Source: an uncultured Acidobacteriota bacterium
GTDB lineage: Bacteria > Acidobacteriota > Terriglobia > Acidiferrales > UBA7541
DNA: 40,000 bases
Reading direction: 5' to 3'
Assembly (NCBI GenBank): GCA_963811805.1
Contig: CAWESU010000003.1
Location: forward strand, 324,435 to 364,434
This document shows, in pieces, positions 20,305-40,000 of the stretch; the stretch's first letter is position 1, and the number at the start of each line of letters is the position of its first letter. The position numbers were made by a program, and so were the translations under genes. Below the pieces are notes generated by a model. The model did not search any database, had not been told where the DNA came from, and worked only from the letters and a program-made list of their open reading frames with translations.

Positions 20305-20357
20305 GCCTACACTTACCGAACATCGCACTCGTCATCCGCTTTTGTTTTGCCTTAGGT

Positions 20358-20922
20358 GTCATTCTGAGCGGAGCGCTCTTCGCGCAGCGAAGAATCTCGC
20401 CTCGGCCTCTTCTTAGTCTGTCATTCCGAACCCGTTCGCGTCTTCTGCGACCGGTGTGAGGTCCGCCGTTTGGACTCCGGTGAAGTCCAGCGGACTTCCG
20501 AAACCGGAGAATCTGCTTTTCGCCTTCGTAGGGGCGGGGCTTCAGCCGGGCCCTCCGTTGTTTTGGGTGTCATCCTGAGGAGCGCATTCTGCGACGAAGG
20601 ATCTCGCCTCGACTCTTTTGCTTTGTCCGTTGCCTTGGTAGGGGCGGGGCTTGCCCCGCCCGGCGCGACTCGCGGAGTCGCGAAAACTCCCCAATCTGCG
20701 GTCCAGAGCCCAGTCGCGCCTTGTCATTCCCAGCGAGGATGCGATGAGCATCCGACGAGGAACCTGCTTTTCGCTTTTCTCGGAGTGCAGCGGTCCGCTT
20801 TGCCTCTTGCTGTTGTAGGGGCGGGCTTCAGCCCCGCCCGTTGCTGCTCTTGTTTTGCCCTTGGTTTGTCTTGGGTGTCATTCTGAGCGGAGCGCTCCTC
20901 GCGCAGCGAAGAATCTCGCCTC
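20358..20922. repeat. cluster of two interleaved intergenic repeat families (REP/MITE-like)
   Basis: Family A: 20358-20403 and 20877-20922 are identical at 45 of 46 positions (GTCATTCTGAGCGGAGCGCTCyTCGCGCAGCGAAGAATCTCGCCTC); diverged copies lie at 20568-20610, about 20420 and about 20723. Family B consists of GC hairpins GTAGGGGCGGGGCTT(CA)GCCCCGCCC at 20528, 20638 and 20815. Confidence 0.8.
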
Positions 20923-20965
20923 AAACCTCTCCTGCGGATCCATCCTTCTGGAGGCGTTTGCCAGC

Positions 20966-21674
20966 TTAATTGATTGTAAACGCAGCATCGAACGAGTACT
21001 GCTGTCCGTCGGGATTGGTCACAGTGACTTGCACAGAGCCATTCGGCAGGGATGGCACAGTCACCTGCAGAGTCATAGAATCAACGAAAGTTGAAACGGC
21101 AGCCGAATTGCCAAACATCACCGTCGCACCGCTTTGAAAACCGCTGCCACGGATCGTGACCTGCGTGCCAGTCGCTGCGGATGCGGGATTCACTGACGCG
21201 ACGCTCAATGGAGCAGCTGCAAGTTGTGCCACTGTAATGCCCGATTGTGTGATTACAAAGATTTTGGTTCCTGTTTCATCTAATGCCAGTTCGTTCAAAG
21301 TATCGGCTGTTCCTTCTGGCAGCCGGATGCGCAATGCGAGGCGCCCGCTGTGCACGTCGAAGATGTCAACGTTCGACGTAACCCCCGACCCTGTGCGGGG
21401 GACGATCAGCAAACTGCCAGATGGATTCAACGCTTCCGAATGCGGATCCTCCGCTTCCAGAGAATTCAGCGTAAAGTAATACTCAATCTCCCCCACACTC
21501 AGCGAGCCAAGTTGCCCATCGAAAGTTCCGAACCCAGCCGAGAAAATATTATCGTCAGCGTCGGCAGCAGCGCTGGTTGGATTTGAGCCTCCGTTCGGGA
21601 GCCCTTGCCCCGTTGTCAGCGAACTATTGGATAGGTTGAGCAGGGCAACCTGCGTCGAGCCACTGGTGAAAAAC
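20966..21674 (-). pseudogene. 3' fragment of IS-disrupted IPT/TIG beta-propeller lipoprotein gene
   Basis: Translation from the IS junction runs FTSGSTQVALLNLSN...SVASVNPASAATGTQVTIRGSGFQSGATVMFG...FTIN*. C-terminal IPT/TIG domain. Same frame as the 5' fragment once the IS is removed. Confidence 0.8.
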
Positions 21675-23107: not shown

Positions 23108-26047
23108 GAAAAACACCCAGGAGCCATCCGGACTTGACGCCATCCCTTCAGGAGTAAAGCCGATAGCGAGGTTCGTGCCAGTCGCATCACATCCTGGGAC
23201 CCCTGTGCAGCTGATAACCCCTGTGTCCAGATTAAGTACGTGGGTAACGACACTGGTGCTAGAACTGGAGCATCGTACATTTTCGACAATCCGATGAGGA
23301 GCCAATGAAGTCAGCGACTGGGCTTGCCCAAAGCAAGCTTCATCCTGTGATGTTAGGGCAGTTTCCGTGCTTATGACGGCACTTGTGCTCGGATTGATTA
23401 CCGAAACCGTGTCGTCGGTGGAGTTCAGCACAGCAAGCTCGGTACCATCTGGCGTCAGGGCCATGTATGTTGGGTTGTTGCCAACCGTTATCGGAGACAA
23501 GAAAGTATTCGTCGTTAGATCAAAAAGCTCGACAAGATTATGGTCAGTGTTCGCGACGTATAACCGTTGTCGCTGCTGGTCGTACACGATACTGTTTAGC
23601 TGGCCCGCAAGTGGGTATACCTGAGCATTTGCTAGGTAGTTGACACCGCCAGGGAGCGTTGTCGACCCATAAAAGGTAGTCACCGTGACATCCGCGCTTC
23701 CGGGCGTGCCAGGCGGCACGGTTACCTGCATGGTCTCTAGCGGCGTCAGCCCACCCGTATCATTGGCCAGCGGTGCAATGCCCACAATTCCGGCTGCCTG
23801 TCCCCCGATAGTTACTGTCGTCGGTGTAACGCCAATGGTCTTGAAGCCGTAGCCGTAAATGTTTATCGTGGTCTGACCCGAAGACGGAACGGCACTTGGA
23901 TCGACCGCGACGATTGTCGGTCCGTAATTGACGGCATCCGGAAGAATCTGGTACCACCCATCCGATCGCACCACCGTGACGTTGGCCGGTCCCAGGGCGC
24001 TTCCCTTCGGGAGGAGCAGATCGAGTTCCTCGGGAGATTTCACCGAAAGTTCAGTGGCAGCAGATGTTTGCGGCGAAGCCGGCGGCGCGCCCACGAAAAC
24101 CGAATAGTTGGAATTTTGATCAAAGCCGTTCCCAATAATGGCCGAGCTTTCAGGATTGGACAGACTGCCCGTAGAAGGGCAAAGCACATTTGGAAAACTG
24201 AAACTTGGCACCGGGGGAAAGGTGGTGCCGGGCTGGATCGGCATGCTGTTTTCCATGCACGCATCCGTTGCCGGGAACCCAGACGGTTCGAGAGAGGTGT
24301 CCGGTACCAGCTCTCCGGGATCGCTTGCGTCAGTCACTGCGAGCCCCAAGGAAGCCGTCCCGAAAATCATTCCCGTTTCATCAATGGCTAGGGGATCCGT
24401 CGCATACTGTTGCATCATCAAGAACAGGCCCTTTGGTGCCAACGTAGTGGCGTCGTAAGCAGCTCCAATATTGCCGAATCCTCCGTTGGCCTCTGAAAAT
24501 AGGGCGTATAGAGTGGTGCCATCTAAACTGAAGATGCTATACCCCGGGTAGTCAGGATTGCCGCCGAGCCACGAAGAAAGAAGGTTGAATTGGCTGTCAT
24601 AAAGATACAGTCCACTCACACCGCTAGGCCCGCTTCCCAAGACAGCAACTCTTGAGCCGTCTGGACTCAATGAAAAAGTCCCTCCACTTTGGAGGTTGGA
24701 ATTCGAATAAGGGACACTATAACTATTCGAAGTGGCGTTATAGAGAACAGCCACTGGCGAATAGCCAGATTGAGACGAAAGCACCACCGTTGTGCGGTCA
24801 GCGCTGCGCGCAAGAAAAAAAGGCCCTCCAAGCGGAGATGGAAAGTTGGGCGGATCGTCCGGCGTGATTGTTTCCGCAGTTGGACTCCATAAGAAGACGT
24901 GGCCGCCCTGTGCATTTAGAACAAGCACGTTGCCCGTCGACAGAGCAACGACCCCGACAGGCGTGGCCTCTAGATTCCCGGTGGTTGGCACTAGCTCCGA
25001 GCCGGTGACCTGATACGATGTCGGATCAAGGGTAAAAACCTTGGAAAGGCTGCCCACAAATACATTCGAACCATCGGCAGACTCATCGATAGCATCCGGC
25101 TGTTCCACGGGGATTGTGGCAATCAAATGCTGGTCGGTCGACGACAGGACGACGACCTCATTGAGATCGGGAAGCGTCGCAAAAACCAGCTTTCTAGCGG
25201 AGTCATAGACTGCGCCCCCGGGATTGTCATCTGTCCCAACAAAATTGCTTCTCGTTGCTGCTGTGATTGCCGGAAAGGGCGAAGTCACAGTGACATTCAG
25301 GATCGCCGTGCTCGAATCGCCCGCGTTGGTGGTCGCAGTTATAAACACCGGCGCGTTGGTGATAGGCAAAGAATCGATGTTCGCGTAGAACGTGACAGTG
25401 AAAGGACCGGGTTCGCTGCCGGCTACGAAGGGATTATCGAGTTCCGGCTGCACAGGTACCGTGGAGAATTCCAGGGACACATCGGGGGACGGTGTTGTGT
25501 TGGAATTCATCGTAACTTGGACACCACCACTGCCCCCAGCTTCGAGAGAGAGCTGGTTTGACGATAGACTTATCTGAAATGGTGCCGCCGACGAAATGTT
25601 AAGTGGAAGCGACGTCGTGTGACTTACGAATCCATTTGCACTAGCTATGTTGAGATTTAGCTGACCAGTTGCTGCTGCCGAGGTTGCGGCAATCAAGACA
25701 GTAACGACATCACTGGGGGAATTTAGTGTAATTGGGCCGCTAGGATAGACCGCAATACCGGCAGGTAAATTCGGAAAAGAAACAGTTACCGTGAACGACG
25801 CGCTGCTTCCCGTGGGGGTTTCTTGCAGAGTGATCGGTTGTGGGCTCCCGCCCTGTTGGAGAGCCACTGTATTGGGCCCTACTGTTAAGGTGAAGTCCGG
25901 AGGAGGCGGAGGCGCAGGAGAAGATTGCGATTGCTGTTGACTTCCTCCACTGCATCCGACGAGAAACCAGCCAACCTGCAACAAAATGAGCAGCGTATGT
26001 CGGAGTCGAGTTGGCGTTCGAGAGGAATTCGCGTGCATATTGCTCAA
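23108..26047 (-). pseudogene. 5' fragment of IS-disrupted IPT/TIG beta-propeller lipoprotein gene
   Basis: Lipoprotein signal LLQVGWFLVGC. Ig-like repeats. YVTN-type propeller repeats (RLYVANTDHNLVELFDLTTNTFLSPITVGNNPTYMALTPDGTELAV). Internal IPT/TIG domain (PTIVAVDPSAVPSSGQTTINIYGYGF). Reading frame runs ...PDGSWVFF into the IS. Confidence 0.8.
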
Positions 26048-26444
26048 GTCATCCTATTCAGGTTTGTTCACGCTACTATACTATAATACCGGGCGGTGTG
26101 TAGGGCTCCCCTCGCACTCTAGCCTGAAAATTATCCGTGTCTCACAAAACGTTGTGACGGGCGCGAAGCTACACCCACAGCGAGATCGAAGTTCAGGCTG
26201 CCGGGCGGTCTCTTCTCTTGCGAGAGTTCCTGCGCGAAACCACAAAAAAAGATCGAACGGCGAGCAGGCAGAGGGGTGGTCCCTTTTTCGCATGCATATA
26301 CGCATACTCCGCATACGTCTGACGGGATAGGAGACAGAAGCCCGCAAAGTTGCACCCCCTGTAAGGCGTTGCGTTTCTTGGAGGGATCGCGTTCAGTAGG
26401 ATTCAGGCTCTGAAAGCATTTCTGGGGGTGGAATAGAAACTAAC

Positions 26445-26612
26445 CTAGCGGCGCTTTCTGGCAAGTGTCTGACGGGCTGCGATCTTTGCCAAACCAAGCA
26501 CGATCCCTGAATTTGTCATCACTGCGTACCGCCAACGTTTCTCAGCCGCGCGCCTTGGCAAATCAAAATCCTCTTGGGTCATCTTCACATTTACCTGAAT
26601 CGTGCGTTTCAT
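26445..26612 (-). CDS. possible ribbon-helix-helix small protein (55 aa, below the ORF-track cutoff)
   Basis: My translation: MKRTIQVNVKMTQEDFDLPRRAAEKRWRYAVMTNSGIVLGLAKIAARQTLARKRR. A beta-strand followed by two helices is compatible with CopG/Arc folds. No partner gene and no clear RBS. Confidence 0.25.
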   Translation of the reverse strand: MKRTIQVNVKMTQEDFDLPRRAAEKRWRYAVMTNSGIVLGLAKIAARQTLARKRR

Positions 26613-26784
26613 GCCTTCTTGTATCTGCTAAACACAGAACGCCAGCAACGTTACTATTCGTACTGAAAATGCTTCCTGTACGTTCGGCCAGCTTACCGCT
26701 TAGGCATTCTGGTGCTCGACAGCGAGTTGACCAAAACGATCCGAGCTACACTGACGCAAGCATCCCACAAGGAGAGATAAACCG

Positions 26785-27402
26785 ATGAAACGGACGCTCG
26801 CAGTTTCAACTACGATCATTTTCATGCTCATGGTTACATCAGCCACTTTCGGACAAAGCACCACCGAGACGAAGAAGGAGCCAGTGAAACCTGTGGCTAA
26901 AACATCGGCTCTAGCAAGGACAGCGCCAAAGGAATCTCCAGATCGCGCTAAACCGGCCCAGTCATTTCACTCGTTGTTTTCCAGGAAACAAAAGGACGAG
27001 CCGGATCAACACGCGCGAGAAGCTCGCGGAGTAGAAGAAGTCCATCCGGCGGCTCGCCCACTTGAACCTCAGCACAGTTTTTACGAAGATCACTTGCAAG
27101 CAGCGCATGCGATTCGCGTTGAGGATCAACTGCATTTCGATGGGCGGCGCTTTGATGATGCCTATTTCGCAGCCAATTTCGGAATAAACCATTCACTCGT
27201 TGTGACGCCCGTCATTGTTCCTGGCGGAGGCACGTATATGTGGTTTGGCTCTTTTTGGTTCTCAGCACCCTCCATGCCAGTGGGATTTGTTTGGACCCGC
27301 CCGGTTTGTATTGAATATGACGCTGTCAACGGCTTTTATTACATGACTGACCTTTCAACCGATCCGCCGACCTTTGTGAAGGTTGAAGCCGTAGTGCAGT
27401 AG
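26785..27402 (+). CDS. hypothetical secreted protein
   Basis: GGAGAG RBS. Signal peptide MKRTLAVSTTIIFMLMVTSATFG. No recognisable domain. Confidence 0.6.
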   Translation: MKRTLAVSTTIIFMLMVTSATFGQSTTETKKEPVKPVAKTSALARTAPKESPDRAKPAQSFHSLFSRKQKDEPDQHAREARGVEEVHPAARPLEPQHSFYEDHLQAAHAIRVEDQLHFDGRRFDDAYFAANFGINHSLVVTPVIVPGGGTYMWFGSFWFSAPSMPVGFVWTRPVCIEYDAVNGFYYMTDLSTDPPTFVKVEAVVQ

Positions 27403-27457
27403 GAGATTCGAGCAGAGGTTCTCAAAATAATCTGCGGAAAACAGGAGAGAAAGAACC

Positions 27458-28030
27458 ATGAAGATAATTTTATCAGCTTTATTTCTTGGGCTGATTGCTA
27501 GCTTGGCGGTGGCGCAAGACCAACCACCGGCTCCCCAGTCCACAGTTTTTATGGGACACCAATTGGGCGAAACTGTTCAGCAATGGTTCAGCGCCAGCGA
27601 TGAGCCGAAAAGATGCGCGGAGTGGAAGAGGAATAAGGCTGACAACAAACTGTTTTGTAAAGTGGCAGACGACATCGCGCAAGGGAGATCGGGTATGCTC
27701 GATACCAGACAGCCGGGCGACAGCGTACTCGCAAGAGATCGCTGGTATTTTCAATATGGCAAACTCGCTGCACTAATCGGAACTTTTCTCCCCTACGACA
27801 AAACCCTCGCGGAACTTCGTGAAAAGTACGGCCCGGAAACGAAAAAGCAGGCAAAACTGGTCGTGCACGTGCTAAGCCCGACGTACCCTGTCTTTGGCGA
27901 AAAGTGGGCCATGCCCGACGGCACACTACTTTTCTTGGTAGAGGATACGCGTGCCGTCAATCATGCGAATCTCGTGATAAGCACGCAAGCGTATATCGAC
28001 CAACAGCAAGACGCAAACAATCCGTTTTGA
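27458..28030 (+). CDS. hypothetical secreted protein
   Basis: AGGAGAGA RBS. Signal peptide MKIILSALFLGLIASLAVAQ. No recognisable domain. Confidence 0.6.
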   Translation: MKIILSALFLGLIASLAVAQDQPPAPQSTVFMGHQLGETVQQWFSASDEPKRCAEWKRNKADNKLFCKVADDIAQGRSGMLDTRQPGDSVLARDRWYFQYGKLAALIGTFLPYDKTLAELREKYGPETKKQAKLVVHVLSPTYPVFGEKWAMPDGTLLFLVEDTRAVNHANLVISTQAYIDQQQDANNPF

Positions 28031-28116
28031 GAGGTGTGTGTACGATAAGGGTCATAAAAAGCTCTCGCACAAGAAGGTTTTTTTTGCTGGGCGATCCAAC
28101 TGGCACATCGCAACCC

Positions 28117-29022
28117 TTATTGAGGGAATAGATTTGGCGTTACACCGGAAGTCGAGCAAATTGCCTCAAGTTCTGGATAGTGCTCAATCAAGGTTGCGGG
28201 TGCCTTTACAGGACGTTTGGTAAGCAAATGGATAAGCTGAAGAGCGTTTACGATGGCTTTGCCCCGGTAATGATTGTTGGTGATTACGAACGTGGACTCG
28301 GAGTTTTCGGCGACGGTGTGGATGCGCTCCGCCCAAGGTTCAAGCTCTTTTCCGCTGTATAAATAGTTGTACCGATCCTCTGACGGCATGTTCGGATCGT
28401 CAGAAAACCAAGTATCGTACCGGCGTCCGTGAAGCCGGATGTAGCCCACTGGCGCTGTCGCGCGGTCTGACGGCCTGAGCGAGCGTCCAATCACCGGCTG
28501 GTCAACATTGCAAAAGCCGACGCCGCACTCCCCCAGCAGATCATAGAAGTCCTTCTCATTCCAGGATGCGTGACGAACCTCAACGACGAGGGGATATTCA
28601 GCGAAGCGAGCAAACAGTTTTTTCAAGTAACCAAGATTCTCCGGCGTGCGATGGAACGAGAAAGGGAATTGCGCAAGCACCGCGCCCAGTTTGTCGGCGT
28701 CCCGCAGCGGATCAAAACCGGCACGGACGGCCCGCTCATCTTCTATGTTCGCGTTCCGTTCGTGAGTGAATTTCTGCCAGAGTTTCGCTGTGAATAGGAA
28801 TCGTGGATTCTCCGCAACAAAGTCGATCCACTTCCGTGCCGTGTCCGGCTCGATTGGGGAGTAAAAAGAGGTATTGAGTTCGATGGCATCGAAGTACTGC
28901 GCCAAGTAAGCAGCTTCGTGAAAACCGGAAGGGCGGCGTTTGGGATAGACGATTCCCGCCCAGTCTTTGTACGACCATCCGGCGGGGCCGATGCGAACTG
29001 GCGCGGGTTTTGGAGATTCCAT
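28117..29022 (-). CDS. DUF72 (YecE-like) family protein
   Basis: IGPAGWSYKDWAGIVYP N-terminal signature, FDAIELNTSFY, and VEVRHASW, typical of DUF72. Confidence 0.8.
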   Translation of the reverse strand: MESPKPAPVRIGPAGWSYKDWAGIVYPKRRPSGFHEAAYLAQYFDAIELNTSFYSPIEPDTARKWIDFVAENPRFLFTAKLWQKFTHERNANIEDERAVRAGFDPLRDADKLGAVLAQFPFSFHRTPENLGYLKKLFARFAEYPLVVEVRHASWNEKDFYDLLGECGVGFCNVDQPVIGRSLRPSDRATAPVGYIRLHGRRYDTWFSDDPNMPSEDRYNYLYSGKELEPWAERIHTVAENSESTFVITNNHYRGKAIVNALQLIHLLTKRPVKAPATLIEHYPELEAICSTSGVTPNLFPQ

Positions 29023-29082: not shown

Positions 29083-29703
29083 ATGACTCTACCCCTCGCG
29101 TCAACCCGCACGGAACAGCATTCTTCTCTGAATCCGTGGGTTCTCCCACTTCGACAGTTGTCCGTTTTCTATGGCTCGCCGCAAGTGCCGCGTCTCTCGC
29201 ACTACTTCCTGCCGAGACTTTTGCTGAATGATGAGCGCGTTCTGTTTTTAGACGGAGCCAATCAGTTTGACCCTCTTTTGCTTGCTCGGTTTGCCCATAA
29301 GCGAGGGCGTGACAGTTCCTCTTTCAATCGGCTCGTGCGTGTTGCGCGGGCTTTCACATGCTTTCAGTTGACGGAGCTAATCACACGCACGCCAAATTTC
29401 TTGAACAGTTTTCCGGCGAAGGTTTTGGTGATTACGGCTATGCCCGATTTGTTTTTCGATGAAGACGTGCGGGAGCATGATGCGCGAGCATCGTTTGAAC
29501 ACGCGCTAGAAGGATTGCGGCAGATTGTACGCGATTCAGTTCCGCTTGCCGTTTTCTCAGATGCGACTTCCTTCCACACGGGGCGACTAGGGTTCTTCCA
29601 TCAACTCACCAAACAGGCCGACAGGCTCTTGAAAGTCGAAATACGAGCGGATGACAAACTCGCCTTCACTTGCGAGAAAGAGACGCCCCAATTACCAACC
29701 TAG
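29083..29703 (+). CDS. RecA/RadB-fold protein with degenerate P-loop (ImuA-like in architecture)
   Basis: LSVFYGSPQVPRLSHYF sits where RecA/RadB proteins have GxxGxGKT. Also RVLFLDGANQFDP, VRVARAFTCFQLTELI and a Walker-B-like KVLVITAMPDLFFDE. ATG 29083 is chosen because the longer track ORF runs antisense into DUF72. Confidence 0.55.
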   Translation: MTLPLASTRTEQHSSLNPWVLPLRQLSVFYGSPQVPRLSHYFLPRLLLNDERVLFLDGANQFDPLLLARFAHKRGRDSSSFNRLVRVARAFTCFQLTELITRTPNFLNSFPAKVLVITAMPDLFFDEDVREHDARASFEHALEGLRQIVRDSVPLAVFSDATSFHTGRLGFFHQLTKQADRLLKVEIRADDKLAFTCEKETPQLPT

Positions 29704-29724
29704 TCGTTTTGCCGGAGAGATGTT

Positions 29725-30078
29725 ATGGGCCGCACAGTTCCCACTTTTGTTCAACTCGTTCAGCAAACCATCCAACGATGGGCGAAATTCCGCCGCGCTC
29801 TTAGACGCGAAGATCAGCCTCACTTCGACAAACTATTCCTTTCGGTGAGAGGGTACACACAAGCGGCAACCTACCAATGCAGTGACAATCCGATGGAAGC
29901 CATTCTTCTTTCCGTGGCGCTCGATCAAGAGAAACGCATCGCGGCACTTGAAAAGCTCGTGAAGGGAAGCGAAGAAAACCATGCGACTGAACGGCTGGAT
30001 TCTCGATCTCTATCCCGGCCAACAAGGAATGACAATTTGGCTGATCGACGCGAATCAGGCTCACTACCGTTTAAGTGA
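29725..30078 (+). CDS. small hypothetical protein, 3' end overlaps PolB-1 by 98 nt
   Basis: GGAGAG RBS 5 nt upstream. MGRTVPTFVQLVQQTIQRWAKFRRALRREDQPHFDKLF... is helical, with no recognised family. Confidence 0.45.
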   Translation: MGRTVPTFVQLVQQTIQRWAKFRRALRREDQPHFDKLFLSVRGYTQAATYQCSDNPMEAILLSVALDQEKRIAALEKLVKGSEENHATERLDSRSLSRPTRNDNLADRRESGSLPFK

Positions 30079-32200
30079 CAGCTTTGCTCCGGCTTTCTAT
30101 GTTTCAGGAGCCGCCGAGAAACTCTCGCACTTGCAACGGTCGTTGGAGCAACAGCGCGCTCCCGTTATTTGCCAGTCCACGGAGCGAATTGACCTCTGGC
30201 AGAACAGGCTCCGGCAAGTTCTGAAAATCTCCGTCCAATCACCGGTTGAATTTGTCCGATGGGGGCGTTGGGTACATCGTTTCGATTCTCGCCTTCAGCT
30301 TTACAACAGCGACCTCATGGTTGCTTCGCTTTATTGTTGGCAGACAAATGTCTTTCCCCTTGCGCGCGTCGAAGTTGAAGCAGACGAAAACGGGAACGTA
30401 CAACGCATGGAACGGCGCGACGATGAATGGGCGCTGGATTACGAGCTTCCGCCGCTCAAGATTATGCAGATTCGGCTTGTGGGTTTTTCACGAATTGACC
30501 CGAACCACGGTCGCCGAGCGGCACTCGAAATTGAAAGCGAGGGCCGCTGCTTCGAGTTAGATGAAAATGACGAACCGCCCGCGCTCGGTTTTGCTCGTTT
30601 GTTGAAGCGCGAAGACCCGGACGTGATTTTATCCGAGTGGGGCGACGCGACAATCTTGCCGCTATTACGCGAGCGAGCCAGCCGCCTGAAACTTTCCTTG
30701 CAACTGAATCGCGATTCTTCCGTTCCCGTGCAACAAAGCAAGCCGCACAGCTTTATGAGTTATGGGCGGATTCTTTTCAAAAACAGCGCCACTACACTGT
30801 TTGGGCGTTTGCACGTGGACAAACAGAACTCTTTCATCTCCGAGAAATGCGACTTCGCCGGCCTTTGGGAATTGGCACGCATCACGAAGCTGCCCGTCCA
30901 ATATGCGGCGAGAACAACCACGGGAACGGGAATCTCCTATATGCAGATGGAGCTTGCCTATCACGATGGCGTGTTGATCCCGGAACAAAAGGCCGAGCCG
31001 GAAGACCCAAAGCAACCCGATGAAATACTGGCCGCAGATCGTGGCGGATTGGTTTTTGTGCCGAAGCTGGGTTTTAGGCCGAACGTCGCAGAGTTGGACT
31101 TTGTAAGTGAATATCCAAGCATCATGGCGCGATTCAATATCTCGCCAGAAACCGTGAATTGCTCTTGCTGCCCCGATGCCCCGCGCATTCCGGAACTCGG
31201 CTACCGTGTCTGCCATAAGCGACGCGGAATCACAAGTCGGATTGTCGAACGCCTCATTGCGAAACGCACGGAATGGAAGCGGCGGCTGCCAACCTCGCCA
31301 TTGGAACTTGTGCAACGCTACAAATTGCAGCGCGATTCACTCAAATGGCTTCTCGTTTGTTGCTTCGGCTATACGGGCTACAAAAATGCACGCTTCGGCA
31401 AGATTGAAGCGCATGAAGCCATCAATGCCGTGGCGCGCGAGACTCTACTTGTCGCAAAAGAAATCGCCGAGAGTCACGGTTTCGAGTTGATTCACGCACT
31501 AGTGGACTCACTCTACGTTTGGAAAGAACATGCCAGCCGCAAGGACTACGAACAACTCGCCCATGAGATCGAGGGCCGTACGGGACTTCCGTTAGCAATC
31601 GAAGCCGTCTATCGCTATGTGGTGTTTCTCCCATCTCGGCAATATGCGGATGTCCCCGTTCCGAATCGTTTCTTCGCTGTCGGTGAAGATGGTGAACTGA
31701 AAGTTAGAGGTCTCGAATGCCGTCGCCATGACACGCCGCCATTCATTGCACGAATGCAGCGTGAAGTGCTCTCGATTCTGGCGGAAGCCACTGACTACGA
31801 TAGCTATCTCAACAAGCTCGAAACAGCGCGAGAAGTTTGGCACAACTACGAAGAGAAACTGACGAACGGAGACGTGGACGTACAGGACTTGGTAGTGAGT
31901 AAACGAATCACACGAGAACCGCGTGAATATCAGAAGGCTAATCTTACGGCCATTGCCGCACAGCAGCTTTTCAGTTGCGGTGTCAAGTTACGCCCCGGAC
32001 AGGCGGTTGAGTACGTTATCACCAACGCAGACGCCGCCGTTCCCAATGATCGCGTTTGCGCCTTTCCGTTGTGGGGAGGGTGGCAAGGATACGACCGGCA
32101 CAAGTACAGAGCAATGCTGCAAGAGGCATTCGCGCCGTTCCTCGCCATTGCGCAGAAATATGATGGCTCGATAGCGATTCCGGCGTTGTACTTGGCCTAG
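29981..32200 (+). CDS. divergent family B DNA polymerase, exonuclease motifs lost (PolB-1)
   Basis: Archaeal/Pol II-like N-terminus (GWILDLYP...FAPAFYVSG). Motif A LDFVSEYPSIM. Motif B KWLLVCCFGYTGY. Motif C reduced to HALVDSLYV. The KxY region is NRFF. The ExoI site is LKIMQIRLVG with no D/E, and the ExoII site is WGDATILPLL. Confidence 0.8.
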   Translation: MRLNGWILDLYPGQQGMTIWLIDANQAHYRLSDSFAPAFYVSGAAEKLSHLQRSLEQQRAPVICQSTERIDLWQNRLRQVLKISVQSPVEFVRWGRWVHRFDSRLQLYNSDLMVASLYCWQTNVFPLARVEVEADENGNVQRMERRDDEWALDYELPPLKIMQIRLVGFSRIDPNHGRRAALEIESEGRCFELDENDEPPALGFARLLKREDPDVILSEWGDATILPLLRERASRLKLSLQLNRDSSVPVQQSKPHSFMSYGRILFKNSATTLFGRLHVDKQNSFISEKCDFAGLWELARITKLPVQYAARTTTGTGISYMQMELAYHDGVLIPEQKAEPEDPKQPDEILAADRGGLVFVPKLGFRPNVAELDFVSEYPSIMARFNISPETVNCSCCPDAPRIPELGYRVCHKRRGITSRIVERLIAKRTEWKRRLPTSPLELVQRYKLQRDSLKWLLVCCFGYTGYKNARFGKIEAHEAINAVARETLLVAKEIAESHGFELIHALVDSLYVWKEHASRKDYEQLAHEIEGRTGLPLAIEAVYRYVVFLPSRQYADVPVPNRFFAVGEDGELKVRGLECRRHDTPPFIARMQREVLSILAEATDYDSYLNKLETAREVWHNYEEKLTNGDVDVQDLVVSKRITREPREYQKANLTAIAAQQLFSCGVKLRPGQAVEYVITNADAAVPNDRVCAFPLWGGWQGYDRHKYRAMLQEAFAPFLAIAQKYDGSIAIPALYLA

Positions 32201-32262: not shown

Positions 32263-33828
32263 TCAGCACTGAATCTCTTGTGCGCTTCTCTTACAACCAG
32301 TGAATCCAACTAACTCCGCGAGCTTTCTCCAATGCCTCGGATGCGGGACGCGCTTTCCTGTGCGTATGTCCGTCGCATATGGCTTCGAGACTGCAAGAGT
32401 CAACGCGATGGCTGGAATCGTAAAAGCCGCTAGCTTTGGCCGAATCTCTTCGCGGTAGACTCTTTCAGTCAACCACTTGGGTAAGTCAGAGGACTTCCAC
32501 AAAGTTCTACCCGTCATTTGCCGACGCATTGTCTCAGAACGGCGCGCCTGAGCCTTCGCGTTGTGGGCCGTTGTTCTTCCGAGTTGGGCAACTTTCAGAA
32601 TTGCTGTCTTGGATTCGTTTAACGCACATGATTTACACAGAGTATTGCCACAAGTGATCGCCGTACCGCAGATTCGGCAGACAGACGGCGGATGCGGCAC
32701 CGGAACCGGGCGAAGACTCAAATCTTCTCCGGTGCGGCTTCGGCGCTGCTGTGTCAACCGCGTGGCCGGGCCAGCCGCTACGGCAGGTTTTCTCATGGTT
32801 GACCACAGCTTACGGCATACGCTCTCTGCTACGGGCGCGACGGCCCAAGCCCAAGTCTGCGCGGTTTCCGAAAGCCGCGCTGCAAATGAACCGACTAGCC
32901 GACAATTGCCATCCGGCTGTTCAAAAAACCATTCTCGGCGCAGTGGCTCACGATTGATCCAGTCGAACACGTAAGCGTCAACTCGCGGGCGAATCGGTTC
33001 CATCAGATCAGACGCGAGGCTGTCGCGCGTCCGGCTATCGAAATGCAATACGCCAAGACCGGGATCGAGGCCAAGCGCGGCAGCGGCTAACCGAGCTTCG
33101 GATTCAAGCAGCGCGTAAAGATAATTGAGCATTGCGTTCGGCGGATTCACAGCCAATCGGGGAGAACCTGTGAGCGGCGAAGCACGAAGCCCGAATTTGA
33201 GCCAATGATCCGGTACGCGACGAAGATCAGCCTTGGCGAACATGATCGGTACGTTGCGCCATGCACCCCAGTATGCTTTTGCTGCTTGGGACTCGAAAAA
33301 CCGCAAGTCATCAATCGAATTCGCGGATGGAAGCTTTTCGCGAGCACTGGCAATCTGCGCAGCCACACCCGTATCGTGAAACTTTTCGCGAATCAGCCGC
33401 TCTTGCGCAACGAGCTTTTGATCTAGCAATTCTTGCGAAATCTGCAAACCCACTTCGGAGCGATACGCCAGAGCTTGGGCGCGTCGCAATCGAGCATCGG
33501 ACGGACGAACTGGGCCAGTTGTGGCGAGCACGGAACCCTTGCGATCCAGCATCACAAAGCTAGCGTCTTGATCGGCCAGCCAGCGAAGCGCGGAGAGAGT
33601 GACGGTGCCATCGTTGCCGATCACCACAAGCCGCCTGATGCCATGCCCGATGCGGGCAAACCGCGCAGTAGTTCGGCGCGAGCCGATGCCGTCATGGATG
33701 ATGAGATGTCCTCGATCCACGCGGACATCAATGCCATAGCCGAATAGCGTCACGACTCCATGTCTCGGTTCAATCGGGATGAAATTGCAGTGCTCGGAAA
33801 GTTGCGGTACCGTTTGCGTAGCTGCCAT
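32263..33828 (-). CDS. cas1: Cas1 homolog (casposase-like) with C-terminal zinc ribbon and basic/HTH-like extension
   Basis: N-domain LFGYGIDVRVDRGHLIIHDG...LVVIGNDGTVTLSALRWL. Catalytic blocks FFESQAAKAYWGAW (E), NAMLNYLYALLESE, and LGVLHFDSRTRDSLASDLMEPIRPRVD (H, D). Extension carries CRICGTAITCGNTLCKSC. Confidence 0.85.
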   Translation of the reverse strand: MAATQTVPQLSEHCNFIPIEPRHGVVTLFGYGIDVRVDRGHLIIHDGIGSRRTTARFARIGHGIRRLVVIGNDGTVTLSALRWLADQDASFVMLDRKGSVLATTGPVRPSDARLRRAQALAYRSEVGLQISQELLDQKLVAQERLIREKFHDTGVAAQIASAREKLPSANSIDDLRFFESQAAKAYWGAWRNVPIMFAKADLRRVPDHWLKFGLRASPLTGSPRLAVNPPNAMLNYLYALLESEARLAAAALGLDPGLGVLHFDSRTRDSLASDLMEPIRPRVDAYVFDWINREPLRREWFFEQPDGNCRLVGSFAARLSETAQTWAWAVAPVAESVCRKLWSTMRKPAVAAGPATRLTQQRRSRTGEDLSLRPVPVPHPPSVCRICGTAITCGNTLCKSCALNESKTAILKVAQLGRTTAHNAKAQARRSETMRRQMTGRTLWKSSDLPKWLTERVYREEIRPKLAAFTIPAIALTLAVSKPYATDIRTGKRVPHPRHWRKLAELVGFTGCKRSAQEIQC

Positions 33829-33834
33829 TGGAGC

Positions 33835-34977
33835 TTAACCCTCCGTGGTAGTTAGGGGCGCGTTCGGTGTTCTAGCACCGGCGCGTCCCGCTTTTGCCGT
33901 AACCCTTATTTTACCCTTCCGTTTAGGAACACGCGCCTTTTTTCTCGGTAGTGACAGCTTCTCTCGTGAATCGCGAACGTTATCAAGCGAGGTTTTAGGG
34001 CGAGAAACATTCCTTAGATAAGCAGATGTGATCGCATAAGGAATGAATGCCTGCTGATGCTTGGATTTTAATACCTCTTCGACTGCAAGCCTGAAGTCGC
34101 GCCACTGCTGACAAATCGAGTCACGCGGATAATTTTCCTTCTTTGGTAAGTTCAGAAGCGCCGCCCGGAACCTCTCCGCTAAAGATTTGCCTCTCCTCGC
34201 GCCGACACGCAGGAACAGACGCTCAACGAGTCGGAAAACAACATACGGATGTTGCGCGAAGGAATCCGCTGGCATCTTTGAACATCGAGTGTCCGATTGC
34301 CGCCATCGCATGTAAGGCAAGCCTGCCAGAGCGTTTGCAAGGTTGAGCGGCGTGAGTGCGCGTTTTCGCTTTCCCTCACTTCGCAAAAAACTCAGTAGCT
34401 CAGAACAATACAAATACACTTCTCCGTTGCGGAGCTGATCTTCGAGCAAGACGCACTCCCGCTGTTTCGCATCAAAAGTCTTTTCGTGGTGCCTCAATTT
34501 CCTACGACACCGGCGACGTTCGTTCCGAAAAGTAGTTTTGTCCTTTTCGTCCGCTTGTTTGACCGCGTTCGCTGCCTCAGCGCAAGCCTGCTGAAGCCCT
34601 GGATACTTTCGCTGCATGTCCTGAAGCTCATACCTGAGTCTGGTGCTTGTTAGGGCGTATTTTCGGAGTTCTCGTACCGTTGCGTGTTGCGGCTCCCCTC
34701 GCAAGAAAGCTCTAGCGTGATCGCAGTGCGGTTTGTCCACAACTCGCTTAAAGACCCTTTGCACATCCGTGATCGTGCTGCTTCTGCGCTTGCGAATCCG
34801 CAATAAGTGCCAGCCAATTTCGGGCCAGCATTGCTCGAAGAATACTTGCCACTGATTCCGGCTGCCCAAAAGAGAGTTATCGGGGATTGTTGGGCGACCC
34901 CCCTTATTAGGTGTTTCCGGTTCCTCCGAAACTGTGTCCATAGGGTCGAAACTAAAATCCCCGCCAGAAAACTCCAT
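33835..34977 (-). CDS. hypothetical basic protein, co-operonic with cas1
   Basis: 380 aa. AGAGG RBS. Stop lies 6 nt before the cas1 ATG. KGGRPTIPD near the N-terminus and a K/R-rich tail (RKKARVPKRKGKIRV). No recognised family. Confidence 0.6.
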   Translation of the reverse strand: MEFSGGDFSFDPMDTVSEEPETPNKGGRPTIPDNSLLGSRNQWQVFFEQCWPEIGWHLLRIRKRRSSTITDVQRVFKRVVDKPHCDHARAFLRGEPQHATVRELRKYALTSTRLRYELQDMQRKYPGLQQACAEAANAVKQADEKDKTTFRNERRRCRRKLRHHEKTFDAKQRECVLLEDQLRNGEVYLYCSELLSFLRSEGKRKRALTPLNLANALAGLPYMRWRQSDTRCSKMPADSFAQHPYVVFRLVERLFLRVGARRGKSLAERFRAALLNLPKKENYPRDSICQQWRDFRLAVEEVLKSKHQQAFIPYAITSAYLRNVSRPKTSLDNVRDSREKLSLPRKKARVPKRKGKIRVTAKAGRAGARTPNAPLTTTEG

Positions 34978-35137
34978 CGCAATTTGCCTCTATCGCCAGA
35001 AAACCGACTTTTGATGTGTGCACATTTCCCGAAAACCCCCATTTTTGCTGCTCTTGCCGGGCCGTGCAGGTTCGGAATACCCGGTGTAAAACGGATACGT
35101 CTGCACCGATTCTCTCACGATGAAAGTGAGGAAAACC

Positions 35138-35710
35138 ATGAGGCGGTCACGGAAATACAACAGGGCAAGAAAAAGCAAGAAGCCCAGCCTAAGTCGGAGT
35201 CGGAGAGTTCGCGTAGCTGCGCCACGAACGGCTAAGCAATTCTTCGCGAAGCCGAATGAGTTTCAAGAGACGTGGACTCGTGTAGCACACGTCGTTTCCA
35301 AAATGCGAACGGAACGAACCTCTCTTCGTGAAGCTTCGCGCGAATTCGGCCTCGATCCTCGCATTGTGACCCGGCTCGGCAAGTCGGCTTTGCGTAAGCG
35401 GAAGAATGGGCAGTACGTCGCAAAGCGCAGCGACAAGCTCTTGCGCATTCTCGCGATTCCTACAGCCGATGGCGTGCGCGAGATCGCGATTCGGGACTCG
35501 CGCCAAGCTACCATTCTCGGAAAGTATTGGGCCGCAGTCCAAAAGTATCTGCAAACTGGCGATGCCTCAGGCTTAAAGAAATTCCATCGCAAACGCATTA
35601 CCGATGCGAGCCGCAGGCGCGTGCCGCTAATCACAGACCAAGCTGAGTTAGACCGGCTCGGCTCTGCCGGTGTGCTGTCCTTTGAATCGCTTTATGCAAA
35701 GGTCGCCTGA
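35138..35710 (+). CDS. hypothetical HTH-containing basic protein
   Basis: ATG 35138 follows a GAGGA RBS; the track start 35120 is also possible. K/R-rich N-terminus. HTH-like TSLREASREFGLDPRIVTRLGK. Confidence 0.55.
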   Translation: MRRSRKYNRARKSKKPSLSRSRRVRVAAPRTAKQFFAKPNEFQETWTRVAHVVSKMRTERTSLREASREFGLDPRIVTRLGKSALRKRKNGQYVAKRSDKLLRILAIPTADGVREIAIRDSRQATILGKYWAAVQKYLQTGDASGLKKFHRKRITDASRRRVPLITDQAELDRLGSAGVLSFESLYAKVA

Positions 35711-36202
35711 TTGAGAAGAAAGGTACAAATTCGCGATCCGATTGCGGCACATCAGCGCAAAGCCGTTGCCGTGCGCCGCGTTGGATTTGATGCGCAATGC
35801 GCGTGCGGCGAATCGCGGCCTGAAGCACTTTTGAGCGGAAGTAATCCGGCCATCTGCGCTGCTTGTGATCGGAAGCGACGCGGCAAGGCAACGCTGGATC
35901 GCCATCACATCGCGGGCAAGTCGAACAGCGCGGTCACAATTCCAATTCCTGTTAACGATCATCGCGCCCGACTCAGCGCCGATCAACACGATTGGCCGAA
36001 GCAAACGCTGGAAAATCCGAACGGCAGTCCGCTACTGGCTGCCGCTGCATCACTCCGGGGATATTCGGATACAACCATCTATCTCCTCGAAACGTTACTG
36101 CATCCCGAAATGCTCGAAGCACTGGATGCGCTCTTGATACAAAAGCTCGGCCCGGAATGGTGGATTGGTACGCCGATGGAAAAATATGCGCAGAGACGAT
36201 AA
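35711..36202 (+). CDS. HNH-like zinc-finger nuclease domain protein
   Basis: CACGE...CAACDRKRRGKATLDRHHIAGKSNSAVTIPIPVNDHRARL fits a Cys4 knuckle plus the HH...N...H layout of the HNH/His-Me finger. TTG start abuts the upstream stop. 3' end overlaps the PolB-2 start. Confidence 0.5.
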   Translation: MRRKVQIRDPIAAHQRKAVAVRRVGFDAQCACGESRPEALLSGSNPAICAACDRKRRGKATLDRHHIAGKSNSAVTIPIPVNDHRARLSADQHDWPKQTLENPNGSPLLAAAASLRGYSDTTIYLLETLLHPEMLEALDALLIQKLGPEWWIGTPMEKYAQRR

Positions 36203-39200
36203 CCACAAACCGAGCAAGGCTTTACTTCCGCTCGCTGTCCGCATCTACCCGGAACCCGAAAAGCCGAAGCAAGAACAGCGAGCTGATCGCCCGCTGCGGC
36301 ACTGGCGTTGTCCAGATGCGATGCTGGTTTTCGACACGGAAACGAGAACCGACGCAACCCAGCGGCTTACTTTTGGCAGTTACCGATTTCTTGTTGCAGG
36401 GCAATGTCGCGAAGAGGGCTTGTTCTATGCTGATGATTTACCGGCGAGAGACCTAGCGATCCTCAAGGATTACATTGCGAGACATAAAGCCGATGTCGCA
36501 GACAGCAAGGCGGAGCTTCGCTTGCTCACGCTTTCCGAATTCTTGGATAAGTTCTATCGGGCTGCGTACAAATCTCGCTGCTTGCTTGTGGGATTTAATC
36601 TTCCGTTCGACTTATCGCGCATTGCCGGGGACGTTGCACCGGCTCGCGGTCGTTTCGCAGGCGGCTTTTCATTGGGACTCTGGTTTTATACTGATAAGTC
36701 GGGACGGAAACGACGGCATCAAAATCGGCCCCGAATCGGAGTCAAACAGATTGACGGCAAGCGGGCACTGAAGGGATTCACTGGGCAGAATAATCCTGAC
36801 AAATCAGACCTGATCCCCGAAGGTTCGGAAACCGGCGGTGCACCTGAAGATGGCTATAAGTTTCGAGGCCACTTTCTCGACTTGCGCACGCTCGCGTTTG
36901 CGCTGACAGATCAGAGCTACTCCCTCGAATCCGCGTGCGAAGCATTCGGTGTCGAACATGGAAAACAACGTGCCTCTCGGCACGGCGAGGTCACAGAAGA
37001 ATATATTGATTACAACCGGCGCGACGTTCTGGCCACGTCAGAATTAGCTGAAAAGCTTTCCCCAGAATACGAAAGGCACAGACTGTCACTTCAGATAACG
37101 AAAGCATATTCACCCGCTTCCATCGGAAAGGCATATCTGCGAGAAATGGGCATTGAGCCGATTCTCAAAAGGCAGCCGGACTTTCCCAAGAAATATCTTG
37201 GCTTTGCGCAATCGGCATTTTTCGGCGGGAGAACCAGCGCACATATCCGCAAAGTTCCCGTCCCAGTCGTTTACACCGATTTTCTTTCGATGTATCCGAC
37301 AGTGAACAGCTTAATGCGGCTGTGGCGGTTTGTGATCGCTCGCGAAATTAAGGTTGTTGAACATTGCGAAAGAGAAACCACCCGTTTTCTGGAAGAAATA
37401 AAAAATAATCCCCCTTGCTTGTTCGATCCTCATACGTGGGAACGGTTAACCGCCTTTGTGAAAGTCATTCCCGATGGCGATATTCTGCCAACCCGGAGCA
37501 AATACAATGCGGCCAGCAATGATTGGCAAGTGGCCGTGAATTATCTTTACGCGGGAGAGCACAAAGCAAATAAAGCTCTATGGTTTTCTCTTCCCGATGT
37601 AATTGCTTCCGTGCTCCTAAGCGGCAAGATTCCGACAGTCGTAAATGCATTTCGCATTGAAGCGCATGGCGTTCTTGATGGATTAGAGCCAACAAAGCTG
37701 TACGGAGCAATTGAAGTTGATCCACGAAAGCAGGATTTCTTCAAAAGAGTAATTGAAGAAAGAAAGCGGCTTGGTTTTCAATCGAACGTCTCCCCCAATG
37801 AGAAAAAGAAACTCGATAAGGCATTGAAAGTTCTTGCGAATGCTACCAGCTACGGAATCTATGCGGAAATGAACCGGCAAGAGTCAGATCACAAAAACAT
37901 TAGGGTGAAATGTCACGGGATAGATGCAGAGCCTTTCACCTGCTCCGTTGCTCACCCTGATGATCCCGGCGAGTATTGTTTTCCGCCGATGGCTTCCCTG
38001 ATAACCGGAGCAGCCCGGCTGATGCTCGCATTATTGGAGTACTCCGTCACAAAGCTGGGTGGCACATACGCTATGGAAGATACCGATTCAATGGCGATTG
38101 TAGCGACTGAGAACGGCGGAATGATTCTATGCCCCGGCGGTTCTCTCAAAACAAACAATGACCGCAAAGTGGTAAGAGCACTATCTTGGAAGCACGTTCA
38201 GCAAATCGCGGATCGTTTCGCTGCTTTGAATCCGTATGCAAATGATGCAGTACCGGGATCAGTCCTCAAACTCGAAGAGGATAATTTTGATCCGGTAACA
38301 CACAAACAGCGCCAGCTTCACTGCCTCGCAATTTCTGCAAAGCGATATGCACTTTTTCTGTGCAATTCAAAGGGCGAGCCTGTTCTTCTTCGAGACGGAA
38401 TCAATAACCGTGCCGACAGGTGGTCAGAACACGGTCTAGGCCATCTTTTGAATCCAATGGACTTGGAAAATGAGGATCGCAACTGGATCGCGCAAACTTG
38501 GCTGAACATCATTCGCAAAGCTCTTGGATTATCGGCCAAACGGTTAAATTTTGAGAATTGTCCCGCAGTAGGCCGAATCACCGTGAGCAGTCCTGCCGTC
38601 ATGCTTCCGTTAAACAAAATAAATCAACGAAAGAATTATGCAAATCAAATTAAACCATTCAATTTTCTTTTATCGTGTCACGTGAAGCAGCTTGGCCATC
38701 CCATCGGCAGTGATCCTGAGCATTTTCATTTAATCGCGCCGTATGAATCCGATTCAAAACGATGGACAGCAATCGAATGGATAGATCAATACACCGGAAA
38801 AAGGTACAGAATCACAACAACTGAACCACACGGAAACCGGCACACGGCGCGCGTGAAAACGTATGGAGATGTTCTAATCGAATATGAATTTCACGCCGAA
38901 ACAAAGAATGCAGATAAAGAGGGGAATCCATCTGGAAAACAAACTATCGGCCTTTTGCAGCGGCGGTATGTTCAAATAGACCAAATCAAATACATCGGAA
39001 AAGAATCCAATAGCATAGAAGATGTCGAATCAGGATTGGCGCATTCCGAAGCCGATGTTTACACGCACTATCCCGATCCCCGGCGCGATGAGTGGGAAAT
39101 AAAGATTAAGCCCGCTTTGAGAAAAGCCGCGCTGTCCGTTCTGGAGAAAGAAACGGGCCTTTCCCGCCGAACTCTCATTTATGCGCGGACGGGTAAGCGC

Positions 39201-39263
39201 AAGCCACACCAAAAACACCGGAAATTGCTGGTTTCGGCTCTCCGAAAACTGAACCTTATCTGA
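36186..39263 (+). CDS. family B DNA polymerase with intact exonuclease and polymerase motifs, protein-primed-like architecture (PolB-2)
   Basis: ExoI LVFDTET, ExoII VGFNLPFDL, ExoIII YIDYNRRDV, pre-A FFGGR, motif A YTDFLSMYPT, motif B KVLANATSYG, motif C AMEDTDSMA, KxY ISAKRYAL. A C-terminal extension of about 290 aa ends in HTH-like ETGLSRRTLIYARTGKRK. Start is ATG 36186 or TTG 36165. Confidence 0.85.
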   Translation: MRRDDNHKPSKALLPLAVRIYPEPEKPKQEQRADRPLRHWRCPDAMLVFDTETRTDATQRLTFGSYRFLVAGQCREEGLFYADDLPARDLAILKDYIARHKADVADSKAELRLLTLSEFLDKFYRAAYKSRCLLVGFNLPFDLSRIAGDVAPARGRFAGGFSLGLWFYTDKSGRKRRHQNRPRIGVKQIDGKRALKGFTGQNNPDKSDLIPEGSETGGAPEDGYKFRGHFLDLRTLAFALTDQSYSLESACEAFGVEHGKQRASRHGEVTEEYIDYNRRDVLATSELAEKLSPEYERHRLSLQITKAYSPASIGKAYLREMGIEPILKRQPDFPKKYLGFAQSAFFGGRTSAHIRKVPVPVVYTDFLSMYPTVNSLMRLWRFVIAREIKVVEHCERETTRFLEEIKNNPPCLFDPHTWERLTAFVKVIPDGDILPTRSKYNAASNDWQVAVNYLYAGEHKANKALWFSLPDVIASVLLSGKIPTVVNAFRIEAHGVLDGLEPTKLYGAIEVDPRKQDFFKRVIEERKRLGFQSNVSPNEKKKLDKALKVLANATSYGIYAEMNRQESDHKNIRVKCHGIDAEPFTCSVAHPDDPGEYCFPPMASLITGAARLMLALLEYSVTKLGGTYAMEDTDSMAIVATENGGMILCPGGSLKTNNDRKVVRALSWKHVQQIADRFAALNPYANDAVPGSVLKLEEDNFDPVTHKQRQLHCLAISAKRYALFLCNSKGEPVLLRDGINNRADRWSEHGLGHLLNPMDLENEDRNWIAQTWLNIIRKALGLSAKRLNFENCPAVGRITVSSPAVMLPLNKINQRKNYANQIKPFNFLLSCHVKQLGHPIGSDPEHFHLIAPYESDSKRWTAIEWIDQYTGKRYRITTTEPHGNRHTARVKTYGDVLIEYEFHAETKNADKEGNPSGKQTIGLLQRRYVQIDQIKYIGKESNSIEDVESGLAHSEADVYTHYPDPRRDEWEIKIKPALRKAALSVLEKETGLSRRTLIYARTGKRKPHQKHRKLLVSALRKLNLI

Positions 39264-39511: not shown

Positions 39512-39631
39512 GCGACACCTGTACGGGAGTCCAGCTTACCCTTCAGGCATAAATCCTACTGAAAATGCCGCCTCAACGCCAAGCACCCTCACAATTGTGC
39601 ATATCGCTGAAACCCAAAGGAGAAGATCCAA

Positions 39632-40000
39632 ATGAAGGCAATAGCACTGGCAACGACAATTATCATTTTCGTAATTGCTCCCTCTGCGTTCGCAGATCAT
39701 AGCAAGACAGTTCCCATGACTTGCGAAGCGGCCATCCATGAAGCAGAAGCCGTGGTCGTCGCGCAAAAACACGGTTACAAGGAACCCGGCCCACAAGACA
39801 TGGTTCTAAAAATCACTAGCTCCAATGTCGGCAAAACCGTGGGAGCGGCGGTGATCTTTCCGCCAGCCTTACTTTGGTCGCACCCGAAATTCGGCGCACT
39901 GACGTTCAGCGCATCAACAGATGGAAAATCGTGCATCGTCAAATCCACTGGTCAACCAGCGGATCAGGCGCTCAAGGATTGGGACAAAGACAGTAACTAG
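39632..40000 (+). CDS. hypothetical small secreted protein
   Basis: AAGGAGAAG RBS. Signal peptide MKAIALATTIIIFVIAPSAFA. Stop TAG at 39998-40000. Confidence 0.6.
   Translation: MKAIALATTIIIFVIAPSAFADHSKTVPMTCEAAIHEAEAVVVAQKHGYKEPGPQDMVLKITSSNVGKTVGAAVIFPPALLWSHPKFGALTFSASTDGKSCIVKSTGQPADQALKDWDKDSN

Follow-up and report, generated by a model that had tools for sequence, protein, structure and literature searches.

The DNA analyzed here is a window of 40,000 nucleotides, by which we mean the whole stretch under study, from an uncultured Acidobacteriota bacterium (assembly GCA_963811805.1, contig CAWESU010000003.1, positions 324,435 to 364,434). On its minus strand, at 32263..33828, it carries a gene for a 521-aa homolog of Cas1. 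From the comparisons presented below, we consider it highly probable that this protein is the casposase, i.e. the Cas1-family integrase, of a casposon of the family 3 type, about 14 kb long and situated in a chromosome of the Acidobacteriota ('Candidatus Acidiferrales'). The protein consists of a Cas1 core (residues ~20-345), a zinc ribbon with four cysteines (384-401) and a C-terminal helix-turn-helix (HTH, ~455-507). The Cas1 homology proposed in an initial annotation of this DNA was supported by profile searches, with Pfam Cas_Cas1 matching residues 31-312 at E=1.6e-42. The NCBIfam model cas1 TIGR00287 also matches (E=6.4e-33, 114 bits against a cutoff of 71.7), and all subtype-specific CRISPR Cas1 models of NCBIfam stay far under their own cutoffs. 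Every peptide that had been quoted for the two-domain Cas1 layout was found in the translation. The active site, which had been described as intact, comprises E179, H262 and D274; these are invariant across 40 relatives (59-100% identity to the window protein), and in HMMER alignments they line up with the E, H and D of the solved Methanosarcina mazei casposase and CRISPR Cas1 structures.

The claim that a casposase-like, DNA-binding extension follows the catalytic domain likewise held for both of its parts. The cysteines of the CxxC...CxxC knuckle (C384, C387, C398 and C401) are invariant across the 40 relatives, some of which are matched by the zinc-ribbon Pfam models Zn_Ribbon_1 (6/40) and DUF7577 (7/40). 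For the HTH-like tail, HTH_31 was identified in 13 of the 40 (best E=1.5e-4), and the AlphaFold model of the casposase, with a mean predicted local distance difference test (pLDDT) score of 75.5, shows a small beta knuckle and then a confident helical bundle at 455-507 (pLDDT ~90). The tail also resembles the C-terminus of a polymerase encoded nearby, the two HTH regions being 35% identical over 43 aa (E=4e-5). The extension is kept throughout the family, as relatives align at 97-100% query coverage.

Comparison with related loci, designated by numbers with the prefix L, gave a core module of four genes that fall into two sets transcribed away from each other. In one of them, genes for a basic ~190-aa protein and a Cys/His protein of 163 aa accompany that for a family B DNA polymerase (PolB) of ~1025 aa; the other ends in Cas1, with a variable gene before it. 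In the window, the sets are separated by a divergent intergenic region (34978..35119) in which the promoters are presumed to lie. The plus-strand set starts with the basic protein (35120..35710; 196 aa, or 190 aa if the start is at 35138), which sits where family 2/3 casposons, judging from the gene table of AceAut-C1, have their conserved HTH protein, and was present in all six diverged elements compared. Next comes the 163-aa protein (35711..36202), with a Cys4 and an HH...N...NDH motif and the invariant residues C30, C32, C49, C52, H65, H66, N82 and H84, at the position where casposons have their HNH endonuclease. Neither of these two gave significant matches in profile searches of Pfam, PHROGs, PADLOC and PDB.

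The third gene of the set (36165..39263, plus strand) encodes a polymerase of 1032 aa, or 1025 aa from 36186, with an HTH tail ('PolB-HTH'); family 2/3 polymerases have been reported with a C-terminal HTH like that of their casposase. It matches Pfam DNA_pol_B_2 at E=6e-6, and its exonuclease motifs I-III, motifs A, B and C and the KxY motif are all invariant or nearly so (D57/E59, F148/D149 with N145 nearly invariant, Y283/D287, D372...Y377, K555...Y563/G564, D639-T-D641-S and K726-R-Y728). Foldseek retrieved family B polymerases, up to E~1e-8, with RNA/DNA-primed enzymes on top and the phi29 polymerase outside the top 50 fold matches; hhalign comparisons with the phi29 polymerase and with a second, 739-aa polymerase of the element were uninformative. 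An interpretation as a bacterial casposon with a protein-primed polymerase, originally based on the threshold Pfam DNA_pol_B_2 match and a wide motif spacing, was withdrawn, since RNA/DNA-primed fold matches lead and the HTH tail and gene order are those of PolB-HTH. Casposase and this PolB occur together in eight out of eight distinct related elements examined.

The end of the element on the casposase and cargo side is a terminal inverted repeat (TIR) of 36 nt at 26324..26359 (plus strand, GGGATAGGAGACAGAAGCCCGCAAAGTTGCACCCCC), which begins GGGATAGGAG and has 26324 as its outermost base. The corresponding end of L007, L008, L009 and L010 has exactly this sequence (100% identity). These four match the window copy at 99.99-100% identity along as much as 13.68 kb; the identity ends at 26320-26324 in one direction and in the other reaches the last base of the window, so that only the final 303 bp on the polymerase side lie outside. 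The second TIR of this copy is accordingly predicted ~303 bp beyond the window. From L007, a complete and essentially identical copy, the full length was determined as 13,980 bp; in L007 the window-type end and the inverted copy at the other end agree at 33 of 36 positions. TIRs in these elements start with GGGATAGG, or with GGGGTATAG in L012, and the 3' termini of both element ends read ...CTCCTATCCC-3'. Immediately outside the window TIR, the host sequence CGCATACGTCTGAC (26310..26323; reverse complement GTCAGACGTATGCG) is presumably one copy of a 14-bp target-site duplication; this is deduced from the complete copies, which carry perfect 14-bp repeats there, because the second copy lies beyond the window.

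Two direct repeats near opposite ends of the element, 26658-26707 and 39518-39578, were also considered as att-like ends and rejected, being internal and upstream of two signal-peptide genes. They are ~80% identical, with their halves circularly permuted, and each is found 55-80 bp upstream of one of these small genes (26785-27402 and 39632-40000), for which they may be a shared promoter or regulatory site.

Six complete elements were delimited among the related loci, with casposases 59-100% identical to the window protein where measured. These are L007 (13,980 bp, TIRs of 36 nt, duplication GTCAACTTGGCGGC), L006 (about 12.0 kb, 36 nt, CGACGCAAGTTGAC), L002 (16,065 bp, 38 nt, GGCTCGCGTTTGAC), L012 (17,293 bp, 122 nt, GCATGTATTTGAC, of which 13 bp are certain), L019 (15,764 bp, 34 nt, GTCAATGAAATGCG) and L020 (about 16.1 kb, 33 nt, GTCAAAGACAACTG). 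All six thus have TIRs, of 33-122 nt, and directly outside these a target-site duplication, which is a perfect 14 bp in five elements and at least 13 bp in the sixth. Such a series, located exactly outside the TIRs, cannot be due to chance. The junctions with perfect 14-bp duplications sit in contigs of 97 kb to 2.3 Mb, and the hosts are genome bins of Acidobacteriota or 'Candidatus Acidiferrales', with bacterial genes such as hrcA-grpE-dnaJ in the flanks.

The same element, at 99.99-100% identity, was found with five different host flanks, one in the window and the others in four genome bins. In the window it lies upstream of a gene for a TIG/beta-propeller protein and in L007 upstream of hrcA, while it adjoins a prephenate dehydratase gene in L008 and a tetratricopeptide repeat (TPR) protein region in L009. 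In L010 it is again situated upstream of hrcA, at a site orthologous to that of L007, but with reversed orientation and within a host background that has diverged. Because essentially identical copies occupy different sites, the element appears to have moved recently. Another five elements, which are diverged, possess TIRs and duplications (13-14 bp) of their own. Read in one orientation, eight out of ten duplications or flanks open with GTCAA, and the other two with GTCAG and CTCAA. In L020 (16600-16750), a third copy of the TIR, together with ~90 bp of subterminal sequence, comes immediately after the right-hand duplication and is the remnant of a second, tandem insertion into the same site. 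A casposase remnant in L003 (10001-11287), without the first 83 residues and without a polymerase module, adjoins host genes that are syntenic with 5.6-12 kb of the window, and is probably what is left of a decayed casposon.

Placement among the casposon families was based on the Cas1 alignment published with the casposon discovery paper (Krupovic 2014), with 19 references. The five best BLASTP matches to the window protein were the five family 3 proteins, namely the casposase of AceAut-C1, at 48% identity over 289 aa (E=1e-72), and the other four at 31-38%. Family 2 proteins were 26-30% identical, family 1 proteins 25% and Cas1-solo group 1 25.7%, and the CRISPR Cas1 references gave short or weak matches only. 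A tree with Cas1-solo proteins and casposases, as proposed in the initial annotation, places the protein with the casposases; in this bootstrapped neighbour-joining analysis, made by a distance method only and on a small taxon set, the acidobacterial proteins grouped with AceAut-C1 in 94 out of 100 replicates, with all of family 3 in 90 and with all casposases in 75. The best solved relative, by sequence as well as by fold, is the M. mazei casposase (6OPM).

Among reported casposases, that of AceAut-C1 (PMC4046053) alone has a zinc-binding domain as well as an HTH C-terminally, an arrangement shared by the window protein. The element has the same gene order, too, with PolB-HTH, divergent HNH and HTH protein where the 1032-, 163- and 196-aa genes lie here, as well as an intergenic insertion site. 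AceAut-C1 differs in having 20 kb, TIRs of 602 nt and a 15-bp duplication, compared with 14 kb, 36 nt and 14 bp here, and it comes from another host phylum, with other cargo, as a single fosmid copy without mobility evidence. The element NitAL212-C1 of Nitrosomonas sp. AL212, also of family 3, is closer in its dimensions (14,414 bp, a 36-nt TIR starting GGGGTATG and a 14-bp duplication, likewise intergenic), whereas its casposase is 33% identical and has the zinc-binding domain at the N-terminus.

The M. mazei casposon (6OPM; Hickman et al. 2020, PMC6977970) also has a 14-bp duplication, and its end, TATATCCC, resembles the ...TATCCC-3' ends found here. Its casposase recognizes targets by a short motif at their 5' end and requires the C-terminal HTH for integration, and both tandem insertions and recent mobility have been described for Methanosarcina casposons. 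In contrast to the present element, it is archaeal, its casposase is ~24-29% identical and lacks a zinc ribbon, and it targets either a tRNA-Leu gene or intergenic DNA containing CGCA, unlike the GTCAA here. The thaumarchaeal casposons of family 1 are, like this element, self-synthesizing Cas1 transposons, and the polymerase here weakly matches a protein-primed Pfam model; their casposases, however, have no extra domains and are 25% identical, and the putative core genes for HNH and HTH proteins, like the polymerase with its HTH tail, are traits that this element has in common with families 2 and 3.

Public databases (NCBI, JGI) annotate the casposase and its homologs as 'CRISPR-associated endonuclease Cas1', and an alternative in which the protein is a domesticated or 'solo' Cas1 of the host, with a role in e.g. 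repair or defence and near polymerase genes by accident, would agree with that plain Cas1 label and with the finding of neither a CRISPR array nor cas2; Cas1-solo group 1 genes without transposon context are known from the literature. The gene is nevertheless located inside an element with TIRs and 14-bp duplications that occupies five sites in nearly identical form, and the protein groups with casposases and not with Cas1-solo group 1. PolB lies 2.3 kb away in the same conserved module, and the module, the TIR and the duplications together argue for the casposase of a true casposon and not for a solo Cas1, a possibility that the element boundaries have already largely refuted and that we regard as very improbable. 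It is extremely improbable that the protein serves adaptation in a decayed or distant CRISPR-Cas locus, even though the protein scores above the cutoff of the equivalog model TIGR00287 (114 vs 71.7 bits). The lack of CRISPR context pointed out in the initial annotation was upheld, with no tandem array and no Rfam match, CRISPR repeat families included, in the window, and no cas2 among the scanned neighboring open reading frames (ORFs), the small ORFs of the window not having been scanned exhaustively. Extending the comparison to the 40-kb window plus ~20 related loci, we found no Cas2 among called genes, no array and no effector genes. The phylogeny, too, opposes this possibility, and a C-terminal fusion of zinc-binding domain and HTH has been described for casposases, not for CRISPR Cas1.

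A different question is whether the element, though real, is moved or maintained as a linear or circular replicon by means other than Cas1, such as a protein-primed polymerase with a terminal protein. The match of its polymerase to the protein-primed model DNA_pol_B_2, at threshold only, and the assembly of many relatives as ~12-kb contigs would be in line with this. Against it stand the chromosomal junctions with perfect 14-bp duplications in the long contigs mentioned above, the fact that a 14-bp duplication is a known casposase product, and the presence of host flanks beyond the TIR(s) in the 12-kb contigs L004 and L006. Furthermore, Pfam, NCBIfam, PHROGs and PADLOC scans of the element's larger ORFs gave no further integrase or transposase, the 55-, 190/205- and 122-aa ORFs not all having been scanned. 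Movement or maintenance without Cas1 is therefore very unlikely in our view.

Several observations do weigh against a family 3 casposon at this locus. Only one end of the element is inside the window, with the far end taken from essentially identical copies, and all copies come from metagenome-assembled genomes. When the empty hrcA site was sought in metagenomes, only two unrelated chance matches were obtained. Among solved structures alone, the M. mazei casposase is ahead of a CRISPR Cas1 (Archaeoglobus) as a match by the small margin of 108.6 to 102.4 bits. The activity of the casposase is a prediction, and the putative HNH and HTH identities of the 163- and 196-aa proteins are derived from motifs and position. 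As for the 1032-aa polymerase, its predicted model is poor (pLDDT 55) and the priming signals are mixed, with a threshold DNA_pol_B_2 match on one side and leading RNA/DNA-primed fold matches on the other.

If the casposon functions like those studied, its integration can be outlined by analogy to the casposases of Methanosarcina mazei and Aciduliprofundum boonei. A casposase oligomer would bind both element ends, and the site formed by E179, H262 and D274 would join both 3'-OH ends to the strands of a GTCAA-containing target with a 14-bp stagger, after which gap repair by a host or element polymerase would create the duplication. The zinc ribbon and HTH could serve to recognize DNA, be it the ends or the GTCAA-containing target, a role proposed because the HTH is essential in M. 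mazei. The element itself would be copied by its own family B polymerase. What was observed directly are the products of this process, namely the ends, the duplications and the multiple sites, from which the integration steps are inferred.

The gene between the casposase and the divergent intergenic region encodes a 380-aa protein (33835..34977, minus strand) with conserved N- and C-terminal regions and a central coiled coil, beyond which no significant profile match was found (Pfam, PHROGs, PADLOC, PDB). The 6-nt gap to the casposase gene and the GGAGGG motif had been recorded correctly in the initial annotation, so the close coupling to Cas1 stood, while the importance given to this protein as a partner did not, the family being small and the slot variable. 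In each of the three related loci inspected (L006, L019 and L020), a member of the family immediately precedes the casposase gene, and distant homologs (29-41% identity) have the same position in the same module. The family nonetheless comprises ~80 clusters, compared with more than 5,900 for Cas1, i.e. it is about seventy times smaller, and the same slot in related elements holds unrelated genes or no clear ORF. These two features point to an accessory gene of one sub-lineage and not to a general substitute for Cas2.

Between the casposase-side TIR and the casposase gene, the element carries a subterminal gene and a varied cargo. The subterminal gene (26445..26612, minus strand) encodes a 55-aa protein that by eye looks like a ribbon-helix-helix protein; it is kept next to Cas1 in L004 and L005 and beside the polymerase end in L002. 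It is followed by two ORFs for signal-peptide proteins (26785-27402 and 27458-28030, both on the plus strand) and by a gene for a DUF72 protein (28117-29022, minus strand, Pfam E=4.1e-55), a stretch (26785..29022) that lies inside the TIR and is not found in the related L004, L006 and L012. Three plus-strand ORFs with overlapping reading frames come next, namely a weak Rad51/RecA-like ORF (29083-29703), a DUF8156 gene (29725-30078, from precomputed Pfam) and the second family B polymerase, of 739 aa (29981-32200; Pfam DNA_pol_B E=3.6e-27, NCBIfam NF004416 381 bits). As this module (29083..32200) is not next to Cas1 in L001, L004 and L006, the 739-aa polymerase was classed as cargo and rejected as the casposon's own polymerase. 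Its motif C, LVDS, contains only one Asp, which agrees with descriptions of the PolB2/G2 group. It looks unusual for one casposon to have two polymerase B genes, and their presence suggests that casposons are able to carry G2-type polymerases between genomes. At the opposite, polymerase end, the subterminal position is taken by a 122-aa signal-peptide protein (39632..40000, plus strand), and the element runs on past the window.

The region between casposase and TIR differs in the related elements, comprising a D12 methyltransferase and a DUF87 ATPase in L006, an SNF2 helicase, a NOV_C nuclease and a D12 methyltransferase in L012, and peptidase S8, Rap1a and bPH_2 in L004. The cargo of these three thus varies and often looks defence-related, judging from the domains.

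Outside the element, an IS256/Mutator-family transposase gene (21782-23056, Pfam E=2.7e-29) was identified within 21674-23108, bounded by inverted repeats at 21674-21700/23082-23108 and 21712-21728/23067-23083. This insertion appears to split a large gene for a TIG/beta-propeller surface protein into 20966-22141 and 23084-26047. REP (repetitive extragenic palindromic)-like direct repeats occupy the intergenic region 20330-20925, where the two copies of a 62-nt unit, at 20342-20403 and 20861-20922, are 94% identical and enclose shorter related ones. A multi-haem cytochrome c of 1080 aa (7991-11233), with several Cytochrom_C, C7 and MtrC-like matches, is also encoded in the host DNA upstream of the element. 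No tRNA was found in the window.

The CRISPR adaptation machinery has been proposed to descend from casposons. According to reviews up to 2023, there are four casposon families with few bacterial members, and the surveys of 2014 and 2016 counted about nine bacterial (family 3) casposons; the experiments and the evidence for recent mobility have so far all been archaeal. Measured by clusters, the Cas1 family found here is large, with over 5,900 at 90% identity and, for E<=1e-30, 1,721 at 50% identity. Of the top 150 representatives, almost all that are not truncated have a profile match running through the C-terminal domains. A tblastn search of plasmids with the casposase and the polymerase gave no matches, and full-text searches, whose coverage does not extend to subscription journals, gave no literature linking casposons to Acidobacteria/Acidobacteriota.

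Taken on its own, the element apparently belongs to a new and active clade of a known kind of element, large and seemingly undescribed, in soil Acidobacteriota. We lean, by somewhat more than even chances, towards a wider interpretation, in which this clade is a very large, active and undescribed radiation of family 3 in these bacteria, with targeting of GTCAA (TTGAC, -35-like), reuse of sites including that upstream of hrcA, and a shuttling of variable cargo, i.e. defence-like modules and, in this case, a second polymerase resembling PolB2/G2. What the family adds to the known casposons is scale, recent movement and a clear target motif. As its homologs are annotated as CRISPR Cas1, estimates of CRISPR prevalence in soils that are based on cas1 would count transposons. 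If the wider interpretation is true, casposons would rank as a major class of mobile elements in a dominant soil phylum instead of a few oddities, and casposition could be studied in a bacterial system. With their variable cargo, these elements are also candidate vehicles by which defence genes and a PolB2/G2-type polymerase may be transferred horizontally.

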